A stretch of 64,000 bases of DNA from Alphaproteobacteria bacterium (lineage in GTDB: Bacteria > Pseudomonadota > Alphaproteobacteria > Micavibrionales > UBA2020): positions 38,986 to 102,985 of the forward strand of contig DAOMYX010000001.1 of NCBI GenBank assembly GCA_035437825.1, in the 5' to 3' direction. The notes beneath the pieces were generated by a model that worked only from the letters and a program-made list of their open reading frames with translations, was not told the origin of the DNA and did no database searches. How positions within the stretch are numbered: the first letter of the stretch is position 1; each line of letters begins with the position of its first letter. The translations under genes were made by a program, and so were the position numbers. Shown here piece by piece: positions 1,583 to 61,699 of this stretch.

Positions 1583-1968
1583 AGTGTGTTTCTCCTTTGT
1601 AAAGTTTCTGAGCACAACTCAATTGCCTTTGATTTATTGGCTTATTTTGAGCTGTACACCTCCGTAACAAGTGAACTTTAAGACATAAAGCCGTATCCCC
1701 GAGGGAATTGCAAGAGGGAATATGTGAAAATTTATTTTTAGTATTCACTGAACTTAAGGTCAAAAATCAAGAATTTGCCTAAAGCCATGAAATTTTCACG
1801 ATTTTCCGTCATATCCCGTATAAGGCCGTCTGTCCGCCCCCCTGTACCCGAAAACGACTGTTTTTGAGTACCTTAGGGCGATGATACCGCCTTGGTGCCC
1901 GCGGAATCGTTCTTGTCAGAATGATTCGCCGAAGGGCGTTATGTCAGGAAACCTGGAAAATGCGGAGG

Positions 1969-2417: not shown

Positions 2418-3008
2418 ATGCCAAAAACCTTGCCAATAATCGTACTTGTGGGGCTGATGGGCGCGGGCAAAAGCCGCGTCGGCCGCGAATTGGCGCGCCT
2501 GATGGGGGTGCCGTTTGTGGATGCCGACCATGAAATCGAAAAATCGGCGGGCATGACCATTCCGGATATTTTTGCAGAATTCGGCGAAGCGGAGTTTCGC
2601 AAAGGCGAGCTGAAAGTCATGCAGCGGTTATTGCAAGGTGCGCCGATTGTGCTGGCCTCCGGCGGCGGGGCGTTTATACAGCCCGCCGTGCGCGCCGCTA
2701 TTAAAAAGCACGCTGTGTCTGTCTGGTTGAAAGCGGATTTGGAAACGCTGGTCGCGCGCACCCGCCGCACGGCGCACCGTCCGCTGCTGCAGGGCGTTGA
2801 CCGCGCGCAAAAACTGCGCGAGCTGATGGATGCGCGCTATCCCGTTTATGCCGAAGCGGACATTACGCTGCTCACAGACCAGCAATCGCCGCAAACCATG
2901 GCGCGGCGCATCCGGCGTGAATTGGCGCAGCAGGGCCTGCTGCCCGCCGGAGACATGCCACGCGGCACATCGGTGCGCACGGCGGATAAACGCGGAGAAA
3001 ACACATGA
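2418..3008 (+). CDS. aroK: shikimate kinase
   Basis: Walker A GLMGAGKSRVGRELA, the DADHEIE motif, and an ATGA overlap with the following aroB. Confidence 0.9.
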   Translation: MPKTLPIIVLVGLMGAGKSRVGRELARLMGVPFVDADHEIEKSAGMTIPDIFAEFGEAEFRKGELKVMQRLLQGAPIVLASGGGAFIQPAVRAAIKKHAVSVWLKADLETLVARTRRTAHRPLLQGVDRAQKLRELMDARYPVYAEADITLLTDQQSPQTMARRIRRELAQQGLLPAGDMPRGTSVRTADKRGENT

Positions 3009-5453: not shown

Positions 5454-5516
5454 GTTGTTATAGTGTAGTATGCTTGCGCGACGAAACGCCACGGTACCGG
5501 GGATACAGGGGATATA

Positions 5517-7430
5517 ATGGCAGGCATAGCGGGTTATTTCGGTCAGGCACAGACGCCGGAAACCCTTCAGGGAATGGTGCGCAAGCTGCTTCACCGTGGC
5601 CGCGGGGGCGAGGCGTTCTACCATGCGAATCCCGTGTTCATGGGGGTGCGCACAACGGCTGCCGAAGGGGCGGCACAGCCCGCCTATAGCCGCGACGACA
5701 GCATCGCTGTTTTGTTTTCCGGCGAAATTTCCAATTATGCCGCGCTGCGCGCAGACCTTGAACGCAAGGGTATCCATTGCCGCAACGACAGCACGGCCGA
5801 GCTTGTGCTGCATTTGTACGAGGCTTATGGCCTGAACCTGGCCACGCATTTGCGCGGGCGGTTCGTTTTTGCCGTGCATGATACGCTTAAAGATTTCGTG
5901 GTCATTACCCGCGACCGCATGGGACAAGAGCCGCTTTACTATACGACCACCCAATCGGGCGATTTCGTGTTCGCGTCCGAACTGAAGGCGTTGCTGGAAC
6001 ATCCGGGCGTGCGTCCCGTGCCCGAATTGCGTGCCATAGATGCCTTTTTGTCTTTCGGCTATAGCCCGGGCCCCGGCACGTTTCTGAAGGGCGTGCATAA
6101 ACTGCCCGCCGGCCACCGCCTGATATGGAACCCCGGCCTGCATGTGATGGTCGAGCCTTACTGGCAGTGGGAAACCTATATGCGCCCGGATGCGGCGCTG
6201 AAAACCGATGCGGATTTTCAGGCGCGTTTCGATACGCTGCTCGAAGATGCCATCGCGCAGTCTGCCGCCGGGCTGCACAAACCGGCCATCGCGCTTTCCG
6301 GCGCGGCCGAGGAAACGGCTATCGCCGCGTTTTTGATGAAAGACGCGCCGCCGCACGGGCTGGATACTTTTACCGTCGGCTATGACGGTGACGAAGAAGC
6401 GCTTTTGCCGTCGCGGGAAATCGCACGGCGTCTGGGCACGCGTCACAACGAAATCATCTGCACACCGCCGGACATGGAGAAGTTGCCCGAAATCGTCTGG
6501 GCGCTTGACGAACCGCTGGGCGACCCGTCGGTCGTTTCGTCCTATATGCTGTCGCAGCAAGCGGGGCAGGGCACGGACGGCATCATCCGCGGCGTCGGTG
6601 CCGATGACATGATGTGCGGACTTTTGCAGCAGGAAGCGTTCTTGCGCATGAGCCGCATGCCGCCGCTATTCTCCGCATTCTATCGCGCGGGTGTAAATCT
6701 GCTGCCCCAATCGTGGATGGACAGCCAGTTCGACTGCAATGGCCGCATCGGTGATAAATGCCGCCAGCGTATTTTGATGGTGCTGTCCGAATTGGGCAAT
6801 AGACGCAGCAGCCTGATGCGCCGTTATGCCATGATGACGGCAGTTTTTACGGCGCGTGACAAAGCTGCGCTCTATACCGGCACGATGTCGCCTGTGATGG
6901 AAAGTTTCATGGACAGCGGCCGCGAAAATGCCTTGGCATGGCCGACGCCGATATCATCGCTGCTGGCACTTCAAAAAGATTATGTGCTGCAAGACAGTAC
7001 GCTGCTGCGCGCGGATAAAATCGCCGGACTGACATCGACCACGCTGCGCCTGCCGTATATGGACAACGCGCTGGTCGAATTCATCCTCTCCGCGCCCGAC
7101 CACCTGAAATATCAGGGCGGCAAGGGCAAGGTGATGATACGCAATTATGTGGAGAAGGTGGCGCCGGGCTTACCCGAAATTTCGCGCCGTCATGCAAACC
7201 TGCCGATGCAGCGTTTCCTTTCAGCCCGCCTGATGCGCGATTTGATGGAAACCTGCCTGTCTGAAAAAGCTGTGCTTGCGCGCGGGCTTTTCAATCCGGA
7301 TGTTGTGCGCCACATTGTCGGCCGCGTGCGTGACGGGGATATGATTGAAATGCGCCAGGGCTTCGCGCTTTTGATGCTGGAGCTGTGGTTCCGCGTCTAT
7401 ATCGACGGCGACAAAAGCTGGCCGCGCTAA
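5517..7430 (+). CDS. asparagine synthetase B family homolog with degenerate active sites
   Basis: Overall AsnB pattern: HRGxxG, FSGEISNY, RDRMGQEPLYY, FASELKAL. The N-terminus is MAGIAG (not MCG) and the PP-loop position reads LSGAAEET (not SGGxDS). Confidence 0.75.
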   Translation: MAGIAGYFGQAQTPETLQGMVRKLLHRGRGGEAFYHANPVFMGVRTTAAEGAAQPAYSRDDSIAVLFSGEISNYAALRADLERKGIHCRNDSTAELVLHLYEAYGLNLATHLRGRFVFAVHDTLKDFVVITRDRMGQEPLYYTTTQSGDFVFASELKALLEHPGVRPVPELRAIDAFLSFGYSPGPGTFLKGVHKLPAGHRLIWNPGLHVMVEPYWQWETYMRPDAALKTDADFQARFDTLLEDAIAQSAAGLHKPAIALSGAAEETAIAAFLMKDAPPHGLDTFTVGYDGDEEALLPSREIARRLGTRHNEIICTPPDMEKLPEIVWALDEPLGDPSVVSSYMLSQQAGQGTDGIIRGVGADDMMCGLLQQEAFLRMSRMPPLFSAFYRAGVNLLPQSWMDSQFDCNGRIGDKCRQRILMVLSELGNRRSSLMRRYAMMTAVFTARDKAALYTGTMSPVMESFMDSGRENALAWPTPISSLLALQKDYVLQDSTLLRADKIAGLTSTTLRLPYMDNALVEFILSAPDHLKYQGGKGKVMIRNYVEKVAPGLPEISRRHANLPMQRFLSARLMRDLMETCLSEKAVLARGLFNPDVVRHIVGRVRDGDMIEMRQGFALLMLELWFRVYIDGDKSWPR

Positions 7431-13582: not shown

Positions 13583-14224
13583 ATGTCCGAACCACGCTAT
13601 GTGCTTTACAAAAACGACCTGCCCGACGGGCTGACCTTTGGCGACACGCTGGCCGTTGACAGCGAGTTTATGGGGCTGAACGTCTGGCGCGACCGCCTGT
13701 GCCTGCTGCAAATCTACGACGGCAGCGAAGGCGGCAAGACGCACATGGTGCAGTTTGACAAGGACAATTACGATTGCCCGAACGTCAAAAAACTGATGGC
13801 CGACGCATCGAAGAAAAAACTGTTTTACTTCGCGCGCGGCGACATGCGGTGGATTGGCCATTACCTCGGCGTTATTCTTGAAAACGTCTATTGCCTGAAA
13901 ATTGCGTCGCGCATCGCGCGCACCTATACGCAGGCGCATGACCTTGAAGACGTCGCCAAACATGTTCTGGGCGTCAAAATCTCCAAGGAACAGCAATGCA
14001 CCAACTGGGGCGCGCCGGAGCTGACGCATGCGCAGCTCGACTACGCCTGCAACGATGTTATCTATCTGCACGGCATTCAGGAAAAACTGGACGAGCTTTT
14101 GGCGCACGAAGGCCGCACGCACATTGCCGACGGCCTGTTCAAGGCACTGCCCGCCGTGGTGCGCGCCGACCTTGCCGGCTGGTCGCACGAAGATATTTTC
14201 GCCTATCACGTTCCCAAGCCGTAA
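13583..14224 (+). CDS. DEDDy 3'-5' exonuclease domain protein (short RNase D-like)
   Basis: Exo motifs LAVDSEFMGL, FARGDMRW and LDYACNDVIYLH. At 213 aa it is the exonuclease core only, without HRDC. Confidence 0.75.
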   Translation: MSEPRYVLYKNDLPDGLTFGDTLAVDSEFMGLNVWRDRLCLLQIYDGSEGGKTHMVQFDKDNYDCPNVKKLMADASKKKLFYFARGDMRWIGHYLGVILENVYCLKIASRIARTYTQAHDLEDVAKHVLGVKISKEQQCTNWGAPELTHAQLDYACNDVIYLHGIQEKLDELLAHEGRTHIADGLFKALPAVVRADLAGWSHEDIFAYHVPKP

Positions 14225-14392
14225 GCGCGGGGCAGGGGAGAATCTGAAAACGCCGCAGGCCTGTGGCGTGTAGCATGAAGGGTAATTTTATTACCTTTAA
14301 CCTTTGGAATACTTTTCACTCCATGCGCGGCCATGCAGGGGGCGATTCCTGAGGATAAGAGATATAAACTATTGAAAATAAAAAGAATAATC

Positions 14393-14406
14393 GCGTTTGC
14401 AAACGC
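14393..14406. promoter_or_regulatory. perfect 14-bp palindrome GCGTTTGCAAACGC in AT-rich spacer
   Basis: Read directly from the sequence. It lies about 60 bp upstream of the promoter-like element of the TelA-like gene. Confidence 0.3.
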
Positions 14407-14462
14407 CGGAAATATTGGATAATGTGTCACCGTAATCGTTAAAAAATTATTGACATCCGCGC

Positions 14463-14491
14463 TTGACATTATGTCATCGCTTTTGTAATTT
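14463..14491 (+). promoter_or_regulatory. sigma70-like promoter candidate with overlapping palindrome
   Basis: TTGACA (14463-14468), 17 bp, then TAATTT (14486-14491). A second TTGACA sits at 14450. Palindrome TGACA-TTA-TGTCA at 14464-14476 overlaps the -35. Confidence 0.4.
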
Positions 14492-14570
14492 TGTCGCGAT
14501 TAAGAAAAATAACCAGTCACGCAACCCCCATCGTTGGTGTACCCATAGATTCACCGAGGAGCCTTTCCAG

Positions 14571-15977
14571 ATGATGAATAAACAGCACAGCGCCGAAGCA
14601 GATTTTAACCGCAATGCGGAAGACGGCGGCGAACCGAAAGACAGCCAGCGTATGAAGCGCGCGCGCGGCGGCGTGATTTACTTCGAAGATGCGGAAGAAG
14701 ACCTGCGCAAAGAAATGCTGCGCATCATGGACCCCATCGACAAAGCGCCCAACAGCTTCGAAGCTGTCATCAGCTACGGTAACGCGCCGCTCGACAAGCT
14801 CGGCAAAGTCGCGAACGAGATGATACGCGTCCAGACCAAATTCAACACCGAAGTCAACGTGATGGCTTCCGCTTTCGACAAACTCGAAAACGGCATCAAA
14901 GACATGAACCTTGACACCTTCGGCGAAGCGACCCGCAAAGCGCTGCAAGGCATGGCCGGCGCGGCCGGTTCGGGCGTGAAGGGCGTAGGCAAATTCATGC
15001 GCGGCATGTGGGACAGCGTTTCCGGTGCCAAAGCAAAACGCACCGAAGACGAAAAAGTCGTCAAAGAAATGCAAGAAGCGCTGCCGCAGATGCTCGAAGA
15101 CCTGCTGAAAATGGTCAAGAACATCGAAAGCACGGAAAAAGGCATTATCGAAGTGACGCGCGAAGCTGAAAAGCTCGGCAAGGCGCGTACCGAAGCCACC
15201 CGCGAAATCTCCATCTACCTCGGCGCCGGCAAAGAAGTTCTGCGCCGTTTCGATGAAGACTACATCAAAGAAGCAAAAGAAGTATTCGAAGAGACGGGTG
15301 ACCCCGAAGATGAAATCTTCATGAAAGAAGTCATCAAGCGCCGCGAAGATTTCGAAGACCGCCTGATGGTTCTCGAAGGCTCCCGCGCGCAGTCCGTCAT
15401 CGCCGCCCAGCAGCTGATGCAGATGATTGAGACGATGGAAGACCAGCGCAAGAAAATCCAGGACATCCTGCGCAACGGCCAGAACGAGTGGAAAGCAATG
15501 CTCGTCGCCGCCGGTATCGCCGGTTCGTCCCTCAAAGTCGCGCAGACCATCAAGAAAGCCGACGAAATGGGCGACCGCATGCACGACCAGACCCAGCACA
15601 TGATCGAGCAAGCGCACGAACTGACCCAGAACTCCAAGGCGCGCGGCACCATTGACCCGCAGAAACTTATCGAAGCGGCGCAGCGTCTTGAGCGTCTGCT
15701 CGAAAGCGAAGCGGAAAACCGTGAAAAACGCCGCGTTCAAATCGAAGCAACGTCGAAAGCTCTGCGCGGTGCGACCGACAAGCTTATCGAAGCCGCTGAA
15801 AGCAGCAACAAAGCCCGCCAGATTGAAGCGGTGCGTGTTGCCGAAGAAAACGCCGAAAAAGCGCGCAAAGAGCGTGAAGACTCTGCCGAGGCAAACGACA
15901 ACAGCGAAGGCGTTGCAACGCCCGCTGCTGCCGACAAGCCGGCACCGCGTCGCCGCTCTCCGCGCGGTCCGAAGTGA
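14571..15977 (+). CDS. TelA / toxic anion resistance family protein (YaaN/KlaB-like) with charged C-terminal extension
   Basis: ORF 14463..15977; I prefer ATG 14571, which has GAGGAG 9 nt upstream. MDPIDKAPNSFEAVISYGNAPLDKLGKVANEMI matches the family IDPxD..aIISYGaxaQ block. ISIYLGAGKEVL and LEGSRAQSVIAAQQLMQMIE blocks are also family-like. Confidence 0.7.
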   Translation: MMNKQHSAEADFNRNAEDGGEPKDSQRMKRARGGVIYFEDAEEDLRKEMLRIMDPIDKAPNSFEAVISYGNAPLDKLGKVANEMIRVQTKFNTEVNVMASAFDKLENGIKDMNLDTFGEATRKALQGMAGAAGSGVKGVGKFMRGMWDSVSGAKAKRTEDEKVVKEMQEALPQMLEDLLKMVKNIESTEKGIIEVTREAEKLGKARTEATREISIYLGAGKEVLRRFDEDYIKEAKEVFEETGDPEDEIFMKEVIKRREDFEDRLMVLEGSRAQSVIAAQQLMQMIETMEDQRKKIQDILRNGQNEWKAMLVAAGIAGSSLKVAQTIKKADEMGDRMHDQTQHMIEQAHELTQNSKARGTIDPQKLIEAAQRLERLLESEAENREKRRVQIEATSKALRGATDKLIEAAESSNKARQIEAVRVAEENAEKARKEREDSAEANDNSEGVATPAAADKPAPRRRSPRGPK

Positions 15978-28152: not shown

Positions 28153-30270
28153 TTAGACAGCTTCTTTTTTCTCAGGAGCTTCCTGCAGTGCCTTGATGGA
28201 CAGCTTGATTTTGCCGCGCTCATCCAGACCGATGCATTTGACTTTTACCTTGTCGCCTTCTTTCAGGACTTCGTCGACCGTCTTGACGCGGCGGTGGGCG
28301 AGTTCGGAGATGTGCACAAGGCCGTCCGTCTTCGGCATGATGTTCACGAAAGCGCCGAATTCGACGACTTTAACGACGGTACCGTCGTAAACCGCGCCGA
28401 TTTCCGGCTCGGCCGTGATGCCTTTAATCCAGTCGATGGCTTTCTTGATGGAATCCGCGTTGACGGCGGCAACCTGCACGGTGCCATCGTCTTCGATGTC
28501 GATTTTCGCGCCGGTCTGCGCAACGATTTCGCGGATGACAGAACCGCCGGAGCCGATAACTTCGCGGATTTTGTCTTTCGGGATTTTAATCGTCACGATT
28601 TGCGGTGCGTTGGACGACAGGTTTTCACGCGCGCCCGTCAGTGCCTTGGCCATTTCGCCAAGGATGTGCTGGCGGCCGTCGTGTGCCTGGTTCAGCGCAA
28701 TCTTCATGATTTCTTCGGTAATCGAAGTAATCTTGATGTCCATCTGCAGTGCGGTAATGCCTTCGGACGTGCCGGCGACTTTGAAGTCCATGTCGCCAAG
28801 GTGGTCTTCGTCACCGAGGATGTCGGACAGAACGGCGAATTTCGCGCCTTCCTTGATAAGACCCATCGCGATACCCGCAACCGGCTTTTTCAGCGGAACG
28901 CCCGCGTCCATGAGGGCGAGGGAAGAACCGCACACCGTTGCCATGGAGGAAGAACCGTTAGATTCGGTAATTTCCGACACAAGGCGGAGGGTGTAGGGGA
29001 ACTGCTCTTTCGCCGGCAGCATCGGGTGTACGGCGCGCCATGCCAGTTTGCCGTGGCCGATTTCGCGGCGGCCCGGGCCGCCCATGCGGCCGGTTTCACC
29101 GACGGAGTAGGGAGGGAAGTTGTAGTGCAGCATGAAGGTTTCTTTGTATTCGCCTTCGAGGCTGTCGATGATTTGCTCATCATCGCCGGTACCCAGCGTC
29201 GCCACAACCAGCGCCTGCGTTTCACCACGGGTGAACAGCGCGGAGCCGTGTACGCGCGGCAGAACGCCGACTTCGGACAGGATGCTGCGGATTTTCTTGG
29301 TGTCGCGGCCATCGATACGCAGGCCGGTATCCAGGATGCCGCCGCGAACGATGTCGGCTTCGGCTTCCTTGCAGAGGTTTTTCACCAGCTGTTCGGTAAT
29401 CGGGCTGCCTTCTTCGCCGGTGACGAGGGCTTCAACAGCCTTTTTGCGGGCAGCGTCCAGTTTGGATACGCGTTCCTGTTTCAGCTGGGTTGCGTAGGCT
29501 GCTTTGAAATCCGCGCCGACGAGGTCGATGATCTGCTTTTTAACAGCGTCGTGGTCGTAGGCGGGCTTGGCCAGTTCCCACGGCTCTTTCGCGCATTGTT
29601 CAGCGAAATCGATGATGGTGTTAATCAGCGGCTGGAAGCCTTTCCAGCCGAACATGACAGCTTCGAGCATCAGTTCTTCGGACAGTTCCTGCGCTTCGGA
29701 TTCAACCATCAGAACGCCTTCTTGCGTACCCGCAACGACGAGGTCGAGCGTGCTGGTTTTCATCTGTTCGGACGTGGGGTTCAGCACCAGCTGGCCATCA
29801 ACGTAGCCAACGCGCGCCGCGCCAACGGGGCCCATGAAGGGAACGCCCGAAATGGTTAGTGCGGCAGACGACGCCACCAGCGCTACGATGTCTGCATCGT
29901 TTTGCAGGTCAACGGACAGAACGGTCGCCAGAACTTGCGTTTCGTTCAGGAATCCTTTGGGGAACAGCGGGCGGATGGGGCGGTCGATGAGGCGGGAAAC
30001 CAGCGTTTCCTTTTCGGTCGGACGGCCTTCGCGCTTGAAGAAGCCACCGGGGATTTTACCGGCTGCGAAAGTTTTTTCCTGATAGTGAACAGTCAGGGGG
30101 AAGAAATCCTGGCCGGGCTTTGCCGTTTTCGCGGCGACAGCAGTTGCAAGAACCGTGGTCTCGCCATAGGTCGCCATGACGGCGCCATCAGCCTGGCGGG
30201 CAACTTTGCCGGTTTCGAGAACCAGCTTTTTGCCGGCCCATTCGATTTCTTTGCGGGTAATATTAAACAT
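28153..30270 (-). CDS. pnp: polyribonucleotide nucleotidyltransferase (PNPase)
   Basis: ORF 28153..30309; I prefer ATG 30270 ([11 protein letters not shown]). Two RNase PH domains, then KH and S1 ([20 protein letters not shown]). Confidence 0.92.
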
Positions 30271-30518
30271 TAGTCTCTTTTCCTTTTTACAAAGTTCCGC
30301 CTCGGTCAAATCACAAACAATAAGGGGCGGCGGAACGCTTTCTTTTTCACCTTATTTTTCACCGTGATACATGCCATTTACGCGCGTCAAAGTCAAGAAT
30401 TTATCCAATATTCTGGCAAATGTAACCGCTTTTCCGGTTGAAAATGATATGGCAAAGCCATAGGCTATCAAAAGCCCGTAAAAACAATTAAAATCAGGGC
30501 CGCACGAGGGAGTGAGCA

Positions 30519-32054
30519 ATGCCGAAAAAACCGCTGGTTCTGTGTATTCTCGACGGCTGGGGGCTCAGCGACAAGGCTGAGTACAACGCGATTGCGCAAG
30601 GGCGCACCCCCAACTACGACCGCCTGTGGCAAACCTGCCCCCATACCACGCTGCGCACCGATGGCCTTGCCGTCGGCCTGCCGGAGGGGCAATTCGGCAA
30701 TTCCGAAGTCGGCCATACCAATATCGGCGCAGGGCGCATTGTTATGCAGGATTTGCCGCGCATCACGCTGGCGGCTGAAGACGGCAGCCTTGCTGTCAAT
30801 CCGGCACTGCGCGATTTTATGGCTGGGTTGAAGCAATCGGGCGGCGCGGCGCATCTGATGGGGCTGGTATCCGACGGCGGCGTGCATGCACATCAAAACC
30901 ATATCGCCGCGCTGGCAAAAATTCTGGACGCGAACGGCGTCAAAACTTTTGTGCATATTTTTACCGATGGCCGCGACACGCCGCCCAACAGCGCGGCGGG
31001 ATATGTTGAAAAATTCATCCGTGATTTGCCGCCGTCTGCGGTTATTGCCACGGTGACAGGGCGTTTCTACGCCATGGACCGCGATAACCGGTGGGAGCGT
31101 GTATCGCAGGCCTTCGATGCCCTCGCGCATGGCAAAGGCATTGCGCAAGCAGATGCGCTGGCCGCGATTCAGGCCGGATATGCGGCGGGGGAGACGGACG
31201 AGTTTATCAAGCCCTGCGTCATCGGCGGCTATGCGGGCATGAAGCCGGAAGACGGTATCCTGAGCGCCAATTTCCGCTCCGACCGTATCCGCGAGATTTT
31301 GCAGGCATTGATTTTTACCGACTTCGACAAGTTTGACCGCGGCGGATATGTGCCCGTCAAAAACACGGCGACCATGACGGTCTATGCCGATTATTTTGCG
31401 CCCTATGTGAAGGTTCTGTTCGCGCCGCAATCCATGGATGATATTTTCGGCGAAGTTGTCGCACGCGCCGGACTGACGCAGCTGCGCGCGGCGGAGACGG
31501 AAAAATACCCGCACGTCACGTTTTTTTTCAACGGCGGGCGCGAACAGCCGTTTGACGGCGAAGACCGCCTGCTTGTCGCATCGCCCAAGGTGGCGACGTA
31601 TGATTTGCAGCCAGAAATGTCGGCGTACGAGCTGACCGAAAAGCTGCTGGAAAAACTGCCGCAGCAGGATGTGGTGATTTTGAACTTCGCCAATCCCGAC
31701 ATGGTCGGCCACACGGGCAGCCTGCCTGCTGCCATCAAAGCCGTGGAGGCGGTGGATACCTGCCTTGGCCGCGTGGCGGATGCTGTTGAAAAGCTCGGCG
31801 GCGTTTTGATTGTCATTGCCGACCACGGCAATGCGGAGCAGATGTTCGACGAAAAAACCGGACAGCCGCATACCGCGCATACGACCAACCCCGTGCCGTG
31901 CATTTTGTTCGGCTACCGCGGCAATCTGGCGCTGCGTCATGGCGGCGTTCTGGCCGATGTCGCACCGACGATGCTGAATATCCTCGGCATCCAGCAACCC
32001 GCCGCGATGGGCGGGCGCAGCTTGCTGGACGTCAAAGATGCGCATGCCGCGTAG
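30519..32054 (+). CDS. gpmI: 2,3-bisphosphoglycerate-independent phosphoglycerate mutase
   Basis: LCILDGWG, NSEVGHTNIGAGR, ADHGNAEQM. Confidence 0.9.
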   Translation: MPKKPLVLCILDGWGLSDKAEYNAIAQGRTPNYDRLWQTCPHTTLRTDGLAVGLPEGQFGNSEVGHTNIGAGRIVMQDLPRITLAAEDGSLAVNPALRDFMAGLKQSGGAAHLMGLVSDGGVHAHQNHIAALAKILDANGVKTFVHIFTDGRDTPPNSAAGYVEKFIRDLPPSAVIATVTGRFYAMDRDNRWERVSQAFDALAHGKGIAQADALAAIQAGYAAGETDEFIKPCVIGGYAGMKPEDGILSANFRSDRIREILQALIFTDFDKFDRGGYVPVKNTATMTVYADYFAPYVKVLFAPQSMDDIFGEVVARAGLTQLRAAETEKYPHVTFFFNGGREQPFDGEDRLLVASPKVATYDLQPEMSAYELTEKLLEKLPQQDVVILNFANPDMVGHTGSLPAAIKAVEAVDTCLGRVADAVEKLGGVLIVIADHGNAEQMFDEKTGQPHTAHTTNPVPCILFGYRGNLALRHGGVLADVAPTMLNILGIQQPAAMGGRSLLDVKDAHAA

Positions 32055-43571: not shown

Positions 43572-44801
43572 TTAGCGTTTGAAATCGGCCACGCGGACGT
43601 TGTCGCTCAGCTCCGCGTCTTTGTATTTCTTGGAGCTGATTTCGTTTTTCAACGCTTCAACGAGGTCGAGTTTTTCCCATGTGAAGCCGCCGTCTGCTTC
43701 CGCTGCGCGGCCGAAGTGGCCGTAGGCGGCAGTGCGGGCATAGATGGGCTTGTTGAGGTTCAGACGCTCGCGGATGGCGCGGGGACGGAAATCCGCCGTT
43801 GCCTGCAGGGCAAGAGACAGCGCCGCGTCGTCATAGCGGCCCGTGCCATGCGTGTTCACGAAAATCGAAATCGGGTGCGATACGCCGATGGCATAGGACA
43901 GCTGGATGGTGCAGCGGTCGGCAAGGCCTGCGGCCACGATGTTTTTCGCGGCATGACGCGCGGCATAAGCGGCCGAGCGGTCAACCTTCGTCGGGTCTTT
44001 GCCGGAGAAAGCGCCGCCACCGTGCGGGGCTGCGCCGCCGTAGGTATCGACGATGATTTTACGGCCGGTCAGGCCGCAGTCGCCATCGGGGCCGCCGATG
44101 ACAAAACGACCCGTCGGGTTGACGTAGAACTGGCTTTCATCGCACATCCAGCCTTCGGGCAGGATGTTGGTGACGTGGGGGCGTACCATTTCGCGAACCT
44201 CTTCGGTCGAAAGGCTGGCGTCGTGCTGCGTCGAGACAACAACAGACGTTGCGCGCACAGGTTTGCCGTTCACATACTCAAGGCTGACCTGGCTTTTCGC
44301 ATCGGGCCCGAGTTTGTAAAGCGCGCCGCTGTGGCGGGCTTCGGCCAGCGATTTCAGGATAGCGTGCGAATAGTGGATGGCGGCCGGCATAAACTGGTCG
44401 GTTTCGCGGCAGGCGTAGCCGAACATGATGCCCTGGTCGCCGGCGCCTTCGTCCTTGTCGCCTGCGGCGTCAACGCCCTGTGCGATGTCGGCGGATTGCG
44501 CATGTAGGCGCACATCGACCTTGATTTTTTCCCAATGGAATTCTTCCTGCTTGTAGCCGATATCGCGCACCGCGTGGCGGGCGATGGTTTCAATCACGTC
44601 CGGCGTGATGGAAGCGGGGCCGCGCGTTTCACCGGCGATGCACAGGAAACCCGTGGTGGCCAGACATTCAGCAGCGACGCGCGCGTGGGGGTCTGCATTC
44701 AGATAGGCATCGACGATTGCGTCGGAAACGCGGTCGCAGACTTTATCCGGATGTCCCTCGCCAACGGATTCACTGGTGAAGATATATTTTTGGTCAGCCA
44801 T
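43572..44801 (-). CDS. metK: S-adenosylmethionine synthase
   Basis: ORF 43572..44831; I prefer ATG 44801 ([20 protein letters not shown]). [28 protein letters not shown]. Confidence 0.95.
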
Positions 44802-45000
44802 GGTTTTTTCCTGCTTATTTATGTTTGTCATACTTGTTCTTTTTATACGTCACGCTTTTACCCCCCTCAATCGTTAAATCCTGCGGCGCAAAAAAAGGCG
44901 GGGGCGGGGCGAAAGAAGATTTCAAAAATCAGCGGCGGCGCCAATTTTTGTTTAACGTAACTTTTCTTGAACGGTTTTTCGTATCATATTCACATTGACG

Positions 45001-45014
45001 CATACGAATGTATG
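45001..45014. promoter_or_regulatory. palindromic motif CATAC-GAAT-GTATG upstream of adhesin gene
   Basis: Read directly, 60-79 nt upstream of the adhesin start. A near-identical copy lies at 48114-48126. Extra GTAT/ATAC half-sites occur at 44980-45030. Confidence 0.35.
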
Positions 45015-45073
45015 GACGTAGTATGGAGCTAAGTGATTTAAATACCGCACTTTTTTAGTGCCATAAGGTTTTT

Positions 45074-47584
45074 TTGACGATGCCTGCAGATGACAGTGCC
45101 ATAAAAACAGCCCGCCGGTTTCTATCGGCTGTGGCGCTATGTGCATTGTCTGTGTTTTTTTCCTACTCCGCCAAAGCGTCCGAGCCGTTCAAGCCGCGCC
45201 TTGAAACAAACTGGCGTCACGGGACGGAACGTTCGATTGTGATGACCGAAGCTTGGGTACCTCTCGCGCAGGATACCGACCGGCTTTTTTACGGCGATGT
45301 GCGCCTGATGGGCGATGATGGCAATAACCGTGAATGGAACGCGGGCATCGGCTACCGGCAGCTTTCTCCTGCCGGCGACAGCGTTTTCGGTTTGCATGGC
45401 TGGTTTGACCGTCGCCGCACCACGCGCGGCTCCGTTTTCTATCAGGGGACGGCGGGCGCGGAATATCTGACGGATGATTTGGATATACGCGTCAATGCCT
45501 ATGTGCCCGCCAGCCAGAAAGAGCGTTATGCCATCGGTGCCTCGACGGCACCCTATCTTGCGGACACTGGTATTTATTACGACACGGCGGGCTTGCTGGT
45601 CGAAAAACCGCTACATGGTTTCGATGTGGAATTTGCCGTACCCGTCAAGCCGCTGCAGGGGCCGATGGAATCCTTTCGCGTTGCGGCGGGCGGCTTTGTG
45701 TTCAGCGGTGATGACGCGCAGACGCTGCGCGGCGTCCGCCTGCGCGCCATGGCGGATGTGACCAGCGATATACAACTGGGCGCGCGGTTTGAAACGGATA
45801 ATTTGCGCGGCGCGCAAGGGTTTGTGGAGGCGACGCTGCGCTTTCCTTTCGGCTCCAAGGCCTCGGCCAAAACGCTGGGGCTGCGCAGCCGCATGGATGA
45901 AAGCCCCGAGCGTGATATCGACGTGATTACCGCCGCGCGCGTGGCAAAAGAGCCGGAGACGGGGCAAGCCGTTCTCAATGCCTTTGACAACATGAACCAG
46001 CGGGTTTTCCATGTGGACAATACCGCGGCCGTAGGGGGCGACGGCACCGTCGAAACGCCTTTCAACACCTTGGCTGCGGCAGGCGCGGCGGCAGACCGCG
46101 AGGGGGATATTGTTTATGTTCACCGCGGTGACGGCAGCAGCACCGGCATGCAAAACGGTGTTGTCCTGTCGCAGGCTTATCAGTCGCTCATCGGCTCCGG
46201 CACGAATTTCGTTTATGATGACGGGCGTTTCACCACGGCGGACGGCAAAGATTTTGACGGGCGCGTCATCATGGCGGCATCAACCGCGCCTGTGATTGGC
46301 AATACGGCGGGCAATGGTGTGACTGTGTCTGCTATGGATGCGACGGTCGCCGGGCTGACCATCGACGGCGCGACGGGGCACGGCATCTATGCGCTGGCGT
46401 CCGGCGGGGCGGATTTGGGCACGCTGTCCATCCGCAATGTCACGGTATCGAACAGCACGCTTGACGGGCTTTATGCCGAAGCGACCGGCGCGGGCAGCAG
46501 CATCGATGTCGAGGTGGATAACTTGCGCGCCGATAACAACCGCAATGGCATGCGTTTTTATGCGCAGCAGAATGCTGCGGGTGTAACGGGCAGCGTGGAA
46601 TCGTCGCGCGCGACGGGCAATGCGGGCTATGGCATTATTCTTTATGACGACAGCACGGCGGGCAGCGTCGATGTCGATATGGGCGGCGGCGGGCGCTCGG
46701 ACGGGCGCAACAGCCTGTATGACAATACGCGCGAAGATTTGGCCGTGGATATCGACGGTGCAACATTGATGGCGCGCGGCAACTGGTGGGGGCAGGCTAC
46801 GGGCGTCTATCAGCAGGCGCCTGCGGGCGGGCAGTCGCCGCAAATCTATTACGGCGCGCCGCTGGATAACGGCTTGCTTATCCACTGGACGTTTGACAGT
46901 GAATGGACATCGGGCACCACGGCTTATGACCGCTCCGGCAACGGATATAACGGCGTGCTGACGGGCGGCGTGACGGCAGCCGCGCTGACAACAGGTGCGA
47001 ACAGGCAGGCCTTGGCGCTCAGCGGCAGCGGTCAATATGTGCGCGCCACGGGCATTGCGGGTACTTATAGCCAATATACCGTGCTGGCCTCTGTCGCGCC
47101 GGATATTACCAGCGGCCCTGTGGGCGATTACGCGACTTGGGGCTATACGGTTGTGTCCGACGGTGCTGCGCAGGGGGCTTCGGCCTATCCATTGTGGGTG
47201 ACGGTGCGCGGCGGCGAGGTTGTAGCGCGTACATATAACCAATCAAATACGGGCACCGTTACCACGGGCGCAGCTATCGGCAACGGGGAGTGGAGCCAGA
47301 TTGCCCTCAGCGCCCAGCGCATGGGGCAAAGCAATATCTATGTCGATGGCAACCTGATGAATACCTATAACAATCCGGCCGGCGGCACGGCCTCTGGCAC
47401 ATGGAACAACGGCAATTTCTATGTCGGCGAGCTGCGCGCGGGACGCGGAATTTATTATGACGGACTGGTTGACGAAGTGCGTGTTTACAGCCGCATTCTC
47501 ACTGCCGCCGAAATCTCGGAAATTTCGCGTATGAACACATCCAGCGTGGTCAATACCGGCGGGTATCTGACGTCTGCGCCCTGA
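45074..47584 (+). CDS. inverse autotransporter (intimin/invasin-type beta-barrel) with parallel beta-helix and LamG passenger domains
   Basis: Signal peptide RRFLSAVALCALSVFFSYSAKA. LFYGDVRLMGDDGNNREWNAGIGYRQL...GTAGAEYLTDDLDIRVNAYVP matches the intimin beta-domain pattern (LFSQ..NLGIGWR...GVGAEYW...ANGY). Beta-helix repeats (GHGIYALASGG..., NRNGMRFYAQQN). C-terminal Laminin_G_3 pattern (YNGVLTGG...LVDEVRVYSRILTAAEI). Confidence 0.75.
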   Translation: MTMPADDSAIKTARRFLSAVALCALSVFFSYSAKASEPFKPRLETNWRHGTERSIVMTEAWVPLAQDTDRLFYGDVRLMGDDGNNREWNAGIGYRQLSPAGDSVFGLHGWFDRRRTTRGSVFYQGTAGAEYLTDDLDIRVNAYVPASQKERYAIGASTAPYLADTGIYYDTAGLLVEKPLHGFDVEFAVPVKPLQGPMESFRVAAGGFVFSGDDAQTLRGVRLRAMADVTSDIQLGARFETDNLRGAQGFVEATLRFPFGSKASAKTLGLRSRMDESPERDIDVITAARVAKEPETGQAVLNAFDNMNQRVFHVDNTAAVGGDGTVETPFNTLAAAGAAADREGDIVYVHRGDGSSTGMQNGVVLSQAYQSLIGSGTNFVYDDGRFTTADGKDFDGRVIMAASTAPVIGNTAGNGVTVSAMDATVAGLTIDGATGHGIYALASGGADLGTLSIRNVTVSNSTLDGLYAEATGAGSSIDVEVDNLRADNNRNGMRFYAQQNAAGVTGSVESSRATGNAGYGIILYDDSTAGSVDVDMGGGGRSDGRNSLYDNTREDLAVDIDGATLMARGNWWGQATGVYQQAPAGGQSPQIYYGAPLDNGLLIHWTFDSEWTSGTTAYDRSGNGYNGVLTGGVTAAALTTGANRQALALSGSGQYVRATGIAGTYSQYTVLASVAPDITSGPVGDYATWGYTVVSDGAAQGASAYPLWVTVRGGEVVARTYNQSNTGTVTTGAAIGNGEWSQIALSAQRMGQSNIYVDGNLMNTYNNPAGGTASGTWNNGNFYVGELRAGRGIYYDGLVDEVRVYSRILTAAEISEISRMNTSSVVNTGGYLTSAP

Positions 47585-57774: not shown

Positions 57775-58263
57775 ATGAAAAAATTGACGGCAATGCTGGC
57801 GGCTATCGCGCTTCTGGCCACGACGGCACAGGCCTCCGCCCAGTGCTATAACGAACGCCAGTTCGAGGCCGAACAGGGCCTGCGCATCCACAGCGAGCTG
57901 ATGGTCATTTCCCTGACCTGCATGAAAATGCCGATGGGCGCGGGGATGTACCAGAAATATCAGGCCTTCACCAACAAGAACAAAGTCCTGATTTCGTCTT
58001 ACGAAACCGACATGATTGATTATTTCCGTGCCAGCGGTTCGCCCGCGCCGGAAAAGCAGTTCCACAGCCTGCGCACGCAGCTGGCGAACCAGATTTCGCA
58101 GCACGCGATTAAAATGTCCACGGCCAGCTTCTGCCAGCATTTCGGCTCGCGCATCGACAGCGCGCTGAAAATGGACCAGGCAAAACTGCGCCAATGGGCA
58201 GCTCAGCCCTGGCCCAACAGCCCGACCACGCGCCCCAGCTGCGGCAAAGTCGCCCAGCGCTAA
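57775..58263 (+). CDS. secreted hypothetical protein
   Basis: AGGAAG before the ATG. Signal peptide MKKLTAMLAAIALLATTAQASA. Four Cys. Followed by a strong hairpin. Confidence 0.6.
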   Translation: MKKLTAMLAAIALLATTAQASAQCYNERQFEAEQGLRIHSELMVISLTCMKMPMGAGMYQKYQAFTNKNKVLISSYETDMIDYFRASGSPAPEKQFHSLRTQLANQISQHAIKMSTASFCQHFGSRIDSALKMDQAKLRQWAAQPWPNSPTTRPSCGKVAQR

Positions 58264-58277
58264 TCGCGCAGACGAAT

Positions 58278-58317
58278 AAAACAAAACGGCGGAGTGGTTA
58301 CTCCGCCGTTTTGTTTT
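58278..58317. terminator. 18-bp-stem bidirectional terminator hairpin
   Basis: AAAACAAAACGGCGGAGT-GGTT-ACTCCGCCGTTTTGTTTT. The right arm is identical to the 3' coding end of the AI-2E transporter gene 596 bp away. Confidence 0.75.
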
Positions 58318-58318
58318 T
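58298..58318. repeat. 21-bp direct repeat copy 1 (TTACTCCGCCGTTTTGTTTTT)
   Basis: Exact match to 58894-58914. The two copies bracket the low-GC segment. Confidence 0.9.
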
Positions 58319-58338
58319 TATTGTGATGGTGTGTCAAT

Positions 58339-58878
58339 TCATTTGCATTTGTAAGGCGGTGCAAACTCTCTGAATATGCTCGGCCAAAAAAAAACCATTT
58401 CGTGAGGTGCTCCGCTGTAGTTTACGGAAGCGTCGCACAAGTCCCCGCCACCTTTGCATAGGCAGATTGGGCGGTGAAACGCAACTCCGTAGCCCCAGAT
58501 GGCTAGTGAGTATGATAATAAATAAAAGTAAGAAAAGATAAGGATACAAATAGTTTGGAAAGTTATTTTTAAAGCCCTCTTTTTTATTTTCAGTAGGAGC
58601 GCATAGGTGCCACCGTATAGGGCAATGTGCTTGGCGTAAAAAAGAACGGTTTCAGAAAAAAACGATGCCTTTAATCCGGAGTAGTTGCTTGACATCAATA
58701 TGCCGCGGCTGCGCAGTGTAAATTCGATGAGGCCGGCAAGTGCTGCGCAAATAATGAATGTACCTGCGGCGAAATGTAGATGATATTTTCGCAGTTCTTT
58801 TTTGTAAAAGCTACAGGCCGTATAAATCAGAACACTGAGTAAAACGACTGTTGCCCAGACAAGGGATAATAGTGGCAC
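58339..58878 (-). CDS. low-GC multi-pass membrane protein with Cys-rich C-terminus (179 aa), unknown function
   Basis: GTG 58878 follows AAAGGAG (9-nt spacer). Four hydrophobic helices. C-terminus HRPICLCKGGGDLCD...YKCK. GC is about 42% by hand count per 60-nt line (range 27-60%), against 55-77% in the flanks. Confidence 0.6.
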   Translation of the reverse strand: MPLLSLVWATVVLLSVLIYTACSFYKKELRKYHLHFAAGTFIICAALAGLIEFTLRSRGILMSSNYSGLKASFFSETVLFYAKHIALYGGTYALLLKIKKRALKITFQTICILIFSYFYLLSYSLAIWGYGVAFHRPICLCKGGGDLCDASVNYSGAPHEMVFFWPSIFREFAPPYKCK

Positions 58879-58893
58879 GGTGCTTGTCTCCTT

Positions 58894-58914
58894 TTACTCC
58901 GCCGTTTTGTTTTT
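58894..58914. repeat. 21-bp direct repeat copy 2
   Basis: Identical to 58298-58318. It encodes the last residues and stop of the transporter (AKNKTAE-stop) on the minus strand. Confidence 0.9.
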
Positions 58915-60030
58915 GGCGGGTGTTTTGGTTTTTGCGGGTTTGGGGTTTTTACCGTCTTGCGCGTCGCCGTCTTCGCGCGTGCGGCTCCAGTCCATCAGCA
59001 GGGCATAGGCGAGGGCGAGCAGCGTCGGGCCGATGAAAATGCCGATGAAACCAAAAGCCAGAACACCGCCGATAACCCCCATCAGGACAAGCACAAAGGG
59101 CAGGTTGCCGCGCAGGCTGATGAAAAACGGCCTGAGCACGTTGTCGATGGTGCTGATGGCGAGTAATCCCCAAAGCCCGACGAATACCGCGCGCCATATT
59201 TCGCCTTCGCTGTAAAGCCACAGTGCGACGGGTGCCCAGATAAACGGCGGGCCATTCGGGACGAAGGACAAAAAGAACGTCATAAGGCCGAGGAACGATG
59301 CGCCCGGCACATCCGCCATCCAAAATCCAAGCGCGGCGAGCATCCCCTGCGCAAGGGCAGTACCGAGCATGCCATAGACCACGCCAATCAGCGTATTCTT
59401 GCTGACATCCAGCAGCCGCTGGCCATAGGGGCCGCCGAAGCGGTGGATAAGGTTGCGCGCCCGCACCGATACCCGCGCCCCGTGCAGAAAAAAGAAATAG
59501 GCAATCATGACACCGATGGTGAGGTCGAAAAGCCCGCGCGCGATGCTGCCGCCAAGGGCGATGAGCCCCTTGGTCATCTGGCTGCTGTATTCTTCGGCGA
59601 CGGCTTGCAGGCTTTCCTTGTCGGCGGTCGCTTCGCGCCAGTAGGTGGCCATGGTTTCGCCTGCGTAGGGAATTTTCGCGATGTCATCGGCGAGTTTGGA
59701 GAGGTCTTGCTGGAGAGATTTTTGCGCAATCTCCGATATCTTGCCGAAATTCTCCGCGCTGCTGGTGCCGATAATCACAAGGGGCACGATAAAGCAAAGC
59801 GCCAGCGCAACGGTCATTAAAAACGCAGCATGCGCCGTGCGCCCGCCCAGCCTCTGGTTCAGCCACATAAAGGCTGGCCACGCCGAGAGCGACAAAATGG
59901 TTGCCAGCAAAATCGCAGGGAAGAAAGGGGTCAGGATAATCAGGCAACCGATTAAAATCAGCGCCACGGCCGAAATACCGGCTATCAGCTGGTAGAGCTG
60001 GTGCTTGTTGACCTTGTCGATTTTCAGCAT
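58894..60030 (-). CDS. AI-2E family transporter (PerM/YdiK-like)
   Basis: ORF 58894..60069; the start is probably ATG 60030 (MLKIDKVNK). Eight or so TM helices and the family pattern FVPNGPPFIWAPVALWL...IDNVLRP. Confidence 0.8.
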   Translation of the reverse strand: MLKIDKVNKHQLYQLIAGISAVALILIGCLIILTPFFPAILLATILSLSAWPAFMWLNQRLGGRTAHAAFLMTVALALCFIVPLVIIGTSSAENFGKISEIAQKSLQQDLSKLADDIAKIPYAGETMATYWREATADKESLQAVAEEYSSQMTKGLIALGGSIARGLFDLTIGVMIAYFFFLHGARVSVRARNLIHRFGGPYGQRLLDVSKNTLIGVVYGMLGTALAQGMLAALGFWMADVPGASFLGLMTFFLSFVPNGPPFIWAPVALWLYSEGEIWRAVFVGLWGLLAISTIDNVLRPFFISLRGNLPFVLVLMGVIGGVLAFGFIGIFIGPTLLALAYALLMDWSRTREDGDAQDGKNPKPAKTKTPAKNKTAE

Positions 60031-60166: not shown

Positions 60167-61699
60167 ATGTATATGCGTATTTTGATGGTCATCACGCTTT
60201 TGCTGTCGTTTGCCGCACCTGTTTATGCGGAGGCTGCGCCCGCCGCTGCCGCTTATGTGGCTGCGCCCGCGCTGACCATCGACCAGAAAATCGACAAAGC
60301 CGTGCAGCCGATTGCCGACAAGGCCATCGGTTTCATGTTCTATCCCGTGACCATCGCGGGGCAGGATGTGCCGATGATTATCATCTGGCTGATGTCCATC
60401 GGCGTTTTCACGTCTTTCTATTTCGGCTTTGCGAATTTCCGCCTGTTCCGCCTGTCGTGCCAGCTTTTGGGTGGCAAGCATCAATCGGCGGAGCGTGAAG
60501 GCCAGATTTCCAACTGGCAGGCGCTTTCGACCAGTCTTTCGGCCACGGTCGGCCTTGGCAACATCGCGGGTGTTGCTGTCGCCGTATCCATGGGCGGGCC
60601 TGGCGCGACGGTCTGGATGATTTTGATGGGCTTTTTGGGTATGAACACCAAGTTCACCGAATGCGCGCTCGGCGTTAAATACCGCCACATCGCCGAAGAT
60701 GGCGAGGTTTCGGGCGGGCCCATGTATTATATTTCCCGCGGCTTCGGCGCGCGCGGGCTGCCGCGCCTTGGCAAGCTGCTCGCGTTTATTTTCGCGCTTT
60801 GCTGCATTGGCGGCGCGGTGGGCGGGGGCAATATGTTCCAGTCCAACCAGACATACCAGATGTTTATGCGCGTCGCGGGCGAGGGCAGCTATTTCGCCGA
60901 CAAAGGCTGGCTGTTCGGCCTTGTGCTTTCTGTCATGGTCGGCGCGGCGATTATCGGCGGCATCAAAAGTATTGCGCGGGTATCTGAAAAAATCTTTCCG
61001 ACCATGGCAACGCTTTATGTGCTGATTTGCCTGATTGTGATTATCGGCAATTATCAGGCCATTCCCGCGGCGGTGGGCGACATCGTGCGCGGCGCTTTCG
61101 CGCCGGATGCGGCGGTGGGCGGCCTTTTGGGCGCGATGGTGGCGGGTGTGCGCCGTGCGGTGTTTTCGAATGAATCCGGCATCGGCTCCGCGCCGATTAC
61201 GCATTCGGCGGTCAAATCCGACTCCCACATCGCGCAGGGCATTATTTCGATGCTGAACCCCTTCATCGATACGGTGGTTATTTGCACCATGACGGCGCTG
61301 GTGATTGCCGTGACGGGCGTGTACGAGGGCGGCAAGGGCGTCGAGGGTATTGCCCTGACTGCGCGTGCGTTTGAAAGCATCGGCGGCTGGACGATTTACT
61401 GGCTCGGCCTGACGGTATTCCTGTTTGCCTATTCCACCATGATTGCGTGGTATTATCTGGGCGAAAAGGGTTTCACCTATATCGCCGGGTGCGGGCGCGG
61501 GCGCGTGATGGCGTTCAAGGTGTTTTATTGCCTGTTCGTGGTCGTGGGCGCGGCGGCGAACCTGACGCACCTTATCGACCTGACGGATGCGCTGTTTTTC
61601 GCTATGGCGATTCCCAACGTGATTGCGCTTTATGTCATGGCGCCGGAAATCAAAAAAGACCTGCGCGAATATCTTGAGAAAATCCGCGCAAGCGCCTGA
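60167..61699 (+). CDS. alanine/glycine:cation symporter (AGCS family)
   Basis: ORF 60005..61699; I prefer ATG 60167. ATVGLGNIAGVAVAVSMGGPGATVWM signature. The N-terminal 20 aa are signal-like (MYMRILMVITLLLSFAAPVYA). Confidence 0.85.
   Translation: MYMRILMVITLLLSFAAPVYAEAAPAAAAYVAAPALTIDQKIDKAVQPIADKAIGFMFYPVTIAGQDVPMIIIWLMSIGVFTSFYFGFANFRLFRLSCQLLGGKHQSAEREGQISNWQALSTSLSATVGLGNIAGVAVAVSMGGPGATVWMILMGFLGMNTKFTECALGVKYRHIAEDGEVSGGPMYYISRGFGARGLPRLGKLLAFIFALCCIGGAVGGGNMFQSNQTYQMFMRVAGEGSYFADKGWLFGLVLSVMVGAAIIGGIKSIARVSEKIFPTMATLYVLICLIVIIGNYQAIPAAVGDIVRGAFAPDAAVGGLLGAMVAGVRRAVFSNESGIGSAPITHSAVKSDSHIAQGIISMLNPFIDTVVICTMTALVIAVTGVYEGGKGVEGIALTARAFESIGGWTIYWLGLTVFLFAYSTMIAWYYLGEKGFTYIAGCGRGRVMAFKVFYCLFVVVGAAANLTHLIDLTDALFFAMAIPNVIALYVMAPEIKKDLREYLEKIRASA

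Follow-up and report, generated by a model that had tools for sequence, protein, structure and literature searches.

Within a 64-kb stretch of DNA from an uncultured Micavibrio-like alphaproteobacterium (contig DAOMYX010000001.1; this stretch at its full length is referred to as the window), an orphan open reading frame (ORF) for a 179-amino acid protein is located between the gene of an AI-2E family transporter and a convergent gene that encodes a 162-amino acid protein. The ORF is best explained as an old accessory gene that lies within an intrinsic terminator loop and is still polymorphic for its presence or absence, and we rate the probability of this interpretation at about 75%. It is suggested by near-conspecific relatives that lack the ORF exactly at the borders of a 21-nt repeat, and by the co-divergence of the ORF with its neighbours. 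An earlier note on this DNA had described the locus as a low-GC, single-gene cassette that was acquired by horizontal transfer, either with duplication of its target or by recombination at a 21-bp core. The description of the locus proved accurate, whereas the age and the source that were proposed for the ORF have to be revised.

Repeats, terminator and insert

The window contains two exact copies of the 21-mer TTACTCCGCCGTTTTGTTTTT on the plus strand, at positions 58298-58318 and 58894-58914, as the earlier note had stated. No match is expected by chance (100 shuffles), and the repeat cannot be extended by even one base on either side. The first copy, which matches at 21 of 21 positions, is the transporter-proximal arm of a hairpin and is now located 3' of the ORF. 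The second copy corresponds to the 3' end of the transporter gene, namely its last six codons and its stop codon (...KNKTAE-stop), and in alleles without the ORF the corresponding sequence is the predicted terminator arm itself. The sole other near-match to the 21-mer in the window is the complementary arm of the hairpin (58277-58297), and the second copy is also perfectly complementary to this far arm, at a distance of 600 nt. The window therefore contains no further copy that would identify the 21-mer as a common dispersed repeat, which had been considered as an alternative to an insertion.

The hairpin at 58278-58317 consists of a perfect 18-bp stem and a 4-nt loop (free energy -28.6 kcal/mol; z -6.7), and it was also picked up, together with a run of T residues, by a terminator scan; both the fold and the scan agree with the earlier reading of the sequence. 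A homologous hairpin is present in all relatives, whether or not they carry the ORF, and its position between the convergent genes is conserved. Judged by the stem-loop and the U-tract at the 3' ends of the genes, the hairpin is a predicted bidirectional intrinsic (Rho-independent) terminator, common to the convergent gene (57775-58263, plus strand) and to the transporter-ORF unit.

The DNA between the two repeats (58319-58893) comprises 575 bp and has a GC content of 43.7%, with a minimum of 26.7% in the lowest 60-nt line, in comparison to 58-59% in the neighbouring genes; the difference to the approximately 42% that had been estimated before is trivial. In a GC scan, the insert emerged as the longest and lowest-GC stretch of the entire window. 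It is almost completely filled by the ORF (58339-58878, minus strand), which starts with GTG and is separated from the transporter stop codon by a spacer of 15 nt (58879-58893, minus strand; previously counted as 16 nt). This spacer contains an AAGGAG Shine-Dalgarno sequence and is conserved in six close-clade alleles. The ORF stop codon is followed by a 20-nt 3' untranslated spacer that extends to the terminator arm (58319-58338, minus strand), and the version in the window is unlike those of the other close-clade alleles. The ends of the insert do not carry inverted repeats, and neither family library scans nor neighbourhood comparison revealed mobility genes within approximately 5 kb, which is in line with the absence of an integrase, a transposase and terminal inverted repeats reported earlier.

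The fold of the RNA at the transporter-ORF junction is not more stable than that of shuffled sequence (z -0.2 to -1.3), and a regulatory structure at this position was therefore rejected. A known RNA element was also rejected, because searches against Rfam, performed with the locus at a relaxed threshold and with the whole window at the gathering threshold, returned only sub-threshold hairpin artefacts. When the ORF is present, the upstream repeat copy is without a nearby pairing partner and the only strong hairpin lies after the ORF. Because the junction shows no terminator-like fold, a Shine-Dalgarno sequence for the ORF lies within the 15 nt that follow the transporter stop codon, and a complete hairpin follows the ORF, it is most likely co-transcribed with the transporter gene, and the transcript would end at the original terminator.

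Occupied and empty sites and the history of the gene

Comparison loci from related genomes are designated by L-numbers and members of the protein family by P-numbers. A locus is called occupied when the orphan ORF is found between the AI-2E transporter gene and the 162-amino acid gene, and empty when the ORF is absent there. A first set of six species-representative loci was recovered with the transporter protein as query, and the closest of these were labelled as Micavibrio sp. or as metagenome-assembled genomes (MAGs) of Alphaproteobacteria. A second census was anchored on the convergent 162-amino acid gene and provided five additional loci, of which L022, L023 and L026 are empty and L024 and L025 are occupied.

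Over approximately 4.7 kb, the identity between L022 and the window is 94.7-97.1% on either side of the site, and the sole large gap in the alignment comprises 596 bp, which corresponds to one repeat plus the insert and falls at 5110-5705 of the reverse complement of the window. In the empty loci L002, L022 and L023, the 21-mer is found once each and the junction lies exactly at the repeat. The empty site that the earlier note had predicted is thus present almost verbatim in these relatives, including L002, and in the close empty relatives the transporter gene ends inside the bidirectional terminator, as had been anticipated for the removal of one repeat and the insert. The transporter gene and the 162-amino acid gene are also adjacent in L001-L004, with no ORF between them. 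Near-conspecific pairs that differ in their occupancy are the window and L022, L007 and L002 (95-99% nucleotide identity), and L015 and L001 (96-98% nucleotide identity). The presence of an ORF with the same composition at this position in all relatives had been named as evidence against an insertion; many relatives do carry it, but conspecific relatives with empty sites exist.

In a neighbour-joining tree of two right-hand flank genes, occupied and empty loci are mixed in all three ingroup subclades, and L026, the single outgroup, is empty. The ORF is likewise absent from the most distant relatives with a conserved flank or transporter (L026, L005 and L006). On this tree, a single gain of the ORF needs at least five conversions to the empty state, while gains alone would require that ORFs which happen to mirror the host tree had entered this site six or seven times.

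The gene has a long history at this site. A search with the ORF protein retrieved seven clusters with 99% down to 46% identity, all of them encoded between the AI-2E and the 162-amino acid genes, and the more diverged P0008 and P0009 (42% and 39% identity to the protein of the window) are again encoded at this site. The search for the cassette in other places, which the earlier note had recommended, therefore gave a divided answer: every homologue with at least 39% protein identity is found at the same site, in 10 sampled lineages, while two distant paralogues are encoded at other loci. A tblastn search did not detect a paralogue of the ORF inside the window. When 1.84 billion representative proteins were searched exhaustively with a profile, only six clusters were returned, all of which belong to the ORF family. 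Among 5.8 billion proteins, about 11 clusters can be assigned to this family, which is confined to similar contigs, some of them labelled as Micavibrio or Alphaproteobacteria. A phage origin of the ORF was rejected, because no relatives were found on viral contigs.

The distances between the ORFs of the 10 occupied lineages are correlated with those between their flanks (Mantel r 0.86, p 0.0008), and the evolutionary rate of the ORF is about double that of the flanks. In the close clade, the number of synonymous substitutions per site (dS) is 0.22-0.45 for the ORF and 0.13-0.66 for the flanks. The ratio of nonsynonymous (dN) to synonymous substitutions is 0.17-0.44 for the ORF and 0.0-0.19 for the flanks. 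The reading frame is maintained down to 39-46% identity. By these measures, the ORF is a real gene that is under relaxed purifying selection and has co-diverged with its neighbours. Since its distances track those of the flanks, its dS is comparable and it is found at the same site in diverged lineages, the ORF is not a recent arrival.

The low GC content is not specific for the window. Here, the ORF has a GC content of 0.437 versus 0.58 in the flanks and a GC content at third codon positions (GC3) of 0.46 versus 0.71-0.79, but in every lineage the GC3 of the ORF (0.32-0.52) is below that of the flanks (0.64-0.79). The two most distant members of the family, P0010 (L019:546-1160) and P0011 (L021:5001-5507 and L020:942-1448), are encoded at unrelated loci, and P0011 is preceded by a polyprenyl synthase gene and followed by a convergent gene for an aldo-keto reductase. 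The GC3 of these paralogues is 0.39-0.41, with a locus GC content of 0.53-0.555. Because distant paralogues elsewhere are equally low, the low GC content is a trait of the whole ORF family. Recoding the protein of the window with the codon usage of the flanks would give 52.8% GC instead of the actual 43.7%, and approximately one third of the GC deficit can thus be attributed to the amino acid composition and two thirds to the codon choice. P0011 is found on another contig of the MAG CAZKBS01, which is the same MAG that contains the empty site L002, and the ORF family is thus resident in these genomes.

Considering these data, a recent horizontal acquisition, in which a foreign low-GC cassette entered the terminator in the lineage of the window by target duplication or by recombination at the 21-bp core, is very unlikely. 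It would be compatible with the near-conspecific, empty L022, with the exact repeats and with a GC content of 43.7% against 58%. In addition, the ORF of the window is a mosaic with a central part that resembles L013, and the lineage of the window might have re-acquired the gene from a relative. However, such a gain would come from a sister lineage via homologous recombination and not from a foreign taxon. The earlier claim of an acquisition that is marked by a foreign GC content is furthermore contradicted by the occupation of the same site in 10 lineages (39-99% identity), by the co-divergence and the flank-like dS, by the restriction of the family to similar contigs, none of which is viral, and by the low-GC3 paralogues elsewhere. 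A foreign source for the ORF appears largely refuted by this comparison.

The structure of the repeats provides information on how the two allelic states are related. In all occupied loci, the order in the orientation of the transporter is the same: the transporter tail with the left arm including the TAA stop codon, the Shine-Dalgarno sequence and spacer, the ORF, a short 3' untranslated region, the left arm again, the loop and the right arm. Both copies of the 21-mer are exact in the window, L013, L027 and L031, and they are nearly exact in L029 (one substitution) and L007 (2-nt shift). In L016, the repeat is retained at 18 of 21 positions; changes in the downstream copy are matched by changes in the right arm (GGGGT/ACCCC), while the upstream copy has drifted. 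The repeat is nearly intact in L018 except for one indel, and it is degenerate in L015 and L025. Such a gradient from exact to degenerate repeats with increasing depth is expected if the sequence was duplicated once, long ago, and the copies then drifted independently.

The terminator-proximal haplotypes of the empty alleles have occupied counterparts: L022 and L002 are like L031 and L027, and L023 is like L029. L023 furthermore retains the CC loop that is seen downstream of the ORF in L013 and the window. The CC loop and the shared haplotypes are the product expected of recombination or slippage between the copies. Pairing between the upstream copy and the far hairpin arm in single-stranded DNA could bring the repeats together and favour deletion. 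The grouping of L022 and L002 into a single old "AA-loop" class of empty alleles was dropped, since L027, L029 and L031 provided occupied alleles with the same right-hand haplotype.

Exchange between lineages is also visible. The identity between L007 and L002 is 97-100% but drops to 76-86% in the final approximately 300 nt of the transporter gene and at the junction, and this patch of L002 matches L013 at 95-96%. The flanks of the window match L027 and L031 at 90-100%, whereas its ORF from approximately 58830 to 58480 matches L013 at 90-97% and L027 and L031 at only 67-84%. For the tail of the ORF and the 3' untranslated region (approximately 58480-58330), the best sampled matches reach just 72-85%. 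These mosaics show a shuffling of occupied, empty and variant ORF alleles by homologous recombination through the conserved flanks.

We therefore favour a history in which DNA with one small membrane-protein gene would have entered the terminator loop in the common ancestor of the Micavibrio-like clade. This entry would have duplicated the transporter-proximal arm of the hairpin, in which the transporter gene has its last six codons and its stop codon. Slippage or recombination between the two copies would subsequently remove exactly 596 bp without a scar, and such an excision would restore the C-terminus of the transporter, its stop codon and the terminator intact. Homologous recombination mediated by the flanks moves occupied, empty and variant alleles between related strains, with the outcome that both states coexist in several species-level lineages while the gene has co-diverged with its hosts. 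Insertion with target duplication, as originally claimed, is still the best account of the origin, but the event would be ancient and the present variation would stem from deletion and recombination.

Several points weigh against this history. The polarity of the event, i.e. an insertion in contrast to an original operon, is deduced from the logic of the repeats and from one empty outgroup, L026, and to our knowledge no enzyme explains a duplication of 21 nt. L001 and L015 show a strong sequence difference to the right of the site, which is too much for a simple recent deletion product and suggests that L001 imported an older empty allele instead of losing the ORF by a new deletion. More generally, repeat-mediated deletion is inferred from the junctions, and some or all of the empty alleles may derive by homologous recombination from one old empty allele. 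The GC3 of the ORF is still 0.32-0.52 despite saturated dS among the deep lineages, which is not predicted by simple amelioration, and an added assumption such as relaxed codon selection or a family-specific constraint is needed to account for its persistence. Finally, most comparison loci are metagenome-assembled contigs, and strain-chimeric contigs could mimic recombination mosaics.

A transporter-ORF operon that is ancestral, with a repeat that arose by local duplication or terminator-like convergence and with empty sites that are all deletions, would dispense with an insertion altogether. The occupied state is indeed found in all three ingroup subclades, and the empty alleles look as if they were derived from occupied haplotypes. 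Nevertheless, the distant relatives L026, L005 and L006 are without the ORF, the composition and codon usage of the ORF differ from those of its neighbours in every lineage, and a 21-nt copy of the arm that includes the stop codon is most simply a duplication upon DNA entry into the loop, so that we consider this explanation even less likely than a recent acquisition. Least likely is an active site-specific or hairpin-targeting cassette, similar to an integron cassette or to an insertion sequence (IS) that targets repetitive extragenic palindromic (REP) elements or terminators, which would have inserted repeatedly and independently, duplicating the arm each time with the help of a recombinase encoded elsewhere. 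It is true that all lineages have their insertion point within a hairpin loop, that several of them show exact repeats and that presence and absence are interleaved on the flank tree. However, the ends of the insert lack inverted repeats, no recombinase is encoded within approximately 5 kb, the ORF groups follow the host subclades, the repeats of the deep lineages are degenerate, as one old event would predict, P0010 and P0011 are not accompanied by a duplicated hairpin arm, and the 21-mer is found nowhere else in the window.

The encoded protein and the neighbouring genes

According to the predictions, the ORF encodes an inner-membrane protein that crosses the membrane with four helices. An AlphaFold (AF2) model based on 11 sequences (predicted local distance difference test, pLDDT, 71.5; predicted template modelling score, pTM, 0.64) contains helices at residues 2-24, 30-57, 74-97 and 101-134, followed by a small C-terminal domain, while an earlier model based on 8 sequences was too poor (pLDDT 51). 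The four predicted helices and the presence of four Cys residues in the tail match the earlier description of four hydrophobic helices and a Cys-rich tail. The loops at residues 26-32 and 97-104 contain four and five Lys/Arg residues, respectively, and according to the positive-inside rule the N-terminus, the loop at residues 56-73 and the C-terminal tail would face the periplasm. Residues C44, R56, F80-Y81, F164-W165 and C178 are invariant across the family including the paralogues, and E52 is nearly invariant. Because a Cys just after helix 4 and the C-terminal Cys are present in all family members, the sequences suggest a periplasmic tail that is closed by a conserved Cys-Cys disulfide, predicted to be C148-C178. 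The tail (residues 131-179) has the highest dN (0.21-0.29), yet its dN/dS is <0.5.

Searches of Pfam, NCBIfam, PADLOC and PHROGs with the 179-amino acid protein gave nothing significant. A photosystem identity, which was the lone match (E 0.016) in a profile search of PDB sequences, was judged to be spurious. The fold search that had been recommended was equally unproductive, as Foldseek comparisons of the 11-sequence model with PDB and BFVD returned only generic helical bundles with E-values above 2. As a weak guess, the ORF product could be a protein with an envelope function or an accessory function in the membrane, and one that the cell can do without. Because the paralogues are encoded at other loci, its function is unlikely to be strictly tied to that of the transporter.

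The transporter gene (58894-60030, minus strand) encodes a member of the AI-2E family (PF01594, E 2.6e-40) with 378 amino acids when translated from MLKIDK, while an ATG at 60069 would give 391 amino acids, and orthologues are present at all related loci. Its Lys/Pro/Thr/Ala-rich C-terminal tail (58915-58990) occurs in two close-clade haplotypes, one of the window/L022/L007 type and one of the L013/L023/L002 type, and both are found with occupied and with empty sites. The tail is built of degenerate AAAAC(C/A)-like repeats that are similar to the 21-mer and that are seen as a repeat family in L013. The convergent gene at 57775-58263, which forms the conserved right-hand flank and uses the same terminator, has a product with four conserved Cys residues and, probably, a signal peptide. 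This protein is 82-100% identical at the amino acid level across the clade, with a dN/dS of 0-0.11. In Pfam, no family was assigned to it and just a sub-threshold match to PepSY_2 or to a lipoprotein signal was obtained, and the product is probably an uncharacterised conserved secreted protein.

The genes in the neighbourhood encode only RecG, a symporter, the AI-2E transporter, a dehydrogenase, a MiaB-like protein and PhoH. The gene beyond the transporter (60167-61699, plus strand) is variable, too. In the window, L007, L015 and L027, it encodes a sodium:alanine symporter (Na_Ala_symp, PF01235), which is replaced by an unrelated AA_permease (PF13520) in L013 (2294-3709), L016 (1848-3263) and L029 (1-1209). 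Both genes have the same position and orientation, between the transporter gene and a conserved gene for a 143-amino acid protein. This second polymorphism, which is of the replacement type, suggests that the neighbourhood is a recombination hot spot. Elsewhere in the window, a stretch of approximately 800 bp with low GC content (approximately 0.41; approximately 1620-2420) is located between an ORF for a XerD-like tyrosine recombinase (599-1615, minus strand) and a shikimate-kinase-like ORF (2418-3008, plus strand); it contains no convincing ORF and gave no Rfam match at the gathering threshold. Additional short low-GC patches are found at 14201-14650, 30151-30600 and 44701-45250 (minimum approximately 0.41 in 300-nt windows).

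Significance and comparison with known systems

The locus provides a clean example of an accessory gene that seems to persist as a presence/absence polymorphism across species-level lineages without mobile-element machinery. Its distinctive feature is that the duplicated sequence has two roles, as one arm of the terminator and as the end of the upstream gene with its stop codon. Because the duplicated arm carries the upstream stop codon, both allelic states are intact and the loss of the gene would be scarless. For genome scans, the locus is a reminder that low GC content, direct repeats and a close empty site can mimic recent horizontal transfer although the gene is old. It also defines a small, uncharacterised family of membrane proteins, which is so far found only in Micavibrio-like predatory bacteria and is of modest practical weight unless the protein has a role in predation or phage interaction. 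Overall, we regard the locus as a tidy case of essentially ordinary accessory-gene dynamics, combined with a clade-restricted protein family. A far more speculative idea, to which we attach little probability, is that terminator loops are general entry points for gene capture via template-switching during replication, and that the polymorphism is then kept for a long time by balancing selection, possibly with the fast-evolving tail as a phage target or in the recognition of prey or self by a predatory bacterium. If this were true, read-through would provide a captured gene with immediate expression, its transcript would end properly, and the duplicated arm would allow its removal without a scar.

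The features of the locus overlap with those of several known systems. Target-site duplications of transposons and insertion sequences usually comprise 2-14 nt. As in such elements, a direct target duplication flanks the inserted DNA, but transposase and terminal inverted repeats are missing, the duplication comprises 21 nt, and a single site is combined with long co-divergence. Dispersed copies were also not found, as neither a second ORF nor a further 21-mer is present in the window and none is present on viral contigs. A transposable element with target-site duplication was rejected, because the ORF is unmatched in the family libraries and the insert ends without inverted repeats. Like an integron cassette, the insert consists of a promoterless single ORF of approximately 0.6 kb with a GC content below that of the host, followed by a hairpin and probably expressed by read-through. 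Unlike in integron cassettes, the hairpin is the host's own perfect-stem terminator instead of an imperfect attC site, and the ORF is never found elsewhere with this hairpin. This identity was rejected, too, since no integrase or array is located nearby and the hairpin is also present in empty alleles, although attC core motifs were not formally scanned. A recently acquired foreign islet would share the atypical composition, but its recent arrival fails on the 10 occupied lineages and the Mantel r of 0.86.

Closer parallels exist with deletions between short direct repeats, which classical work on lacI in Escherichia coli and later slippage studies reportedly found to be stimulated by palindromes. 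Here as well, the long allele has two copies and the short allele one, the junction lies exactly at the repeat, and the empty alleles carry the right-flank haplotype of related occupied ones, which does not apply to L001 versus L015. Different from these systems, the repeat is functional, as it comprises a stop codon, the C-terminus and a terminator arm, so that both states are functional, and the deletion proposed here is read from junction sequences. Related reviews and experiments on deletion between direct repeats are available (e.g. PMC4134008).

The second parallel concerns the minimal mobile elements (MME) of Neisseria, for which PMC3787668 (citing Saunders & Snyder 2002 and Snyder et al. 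2007) describes that even the closest relatives differ in what they carry between conserved neighbouring genes, and that this content is exchanged by homologous recombination. In terms of this description, gene content also varies here between the same flanks in the closest relatives (the window/L022, L007/L002 and L015/L001), genes for its own mobility are absent, mosaic tracts mark the exchange through the flanks, and a second variable locus is located next door. In contrast to MME as portrayed there, a single gene is involved, its 21-nt direct repeat borders would allow a precise deletion without a donor, and the host is an uncultured Micavibrio-like alphaproteobacterium. Thus, as far as its sequences indicate, the locus matches a combination of MME-like behaviour with classical deletion between short direct repeats.

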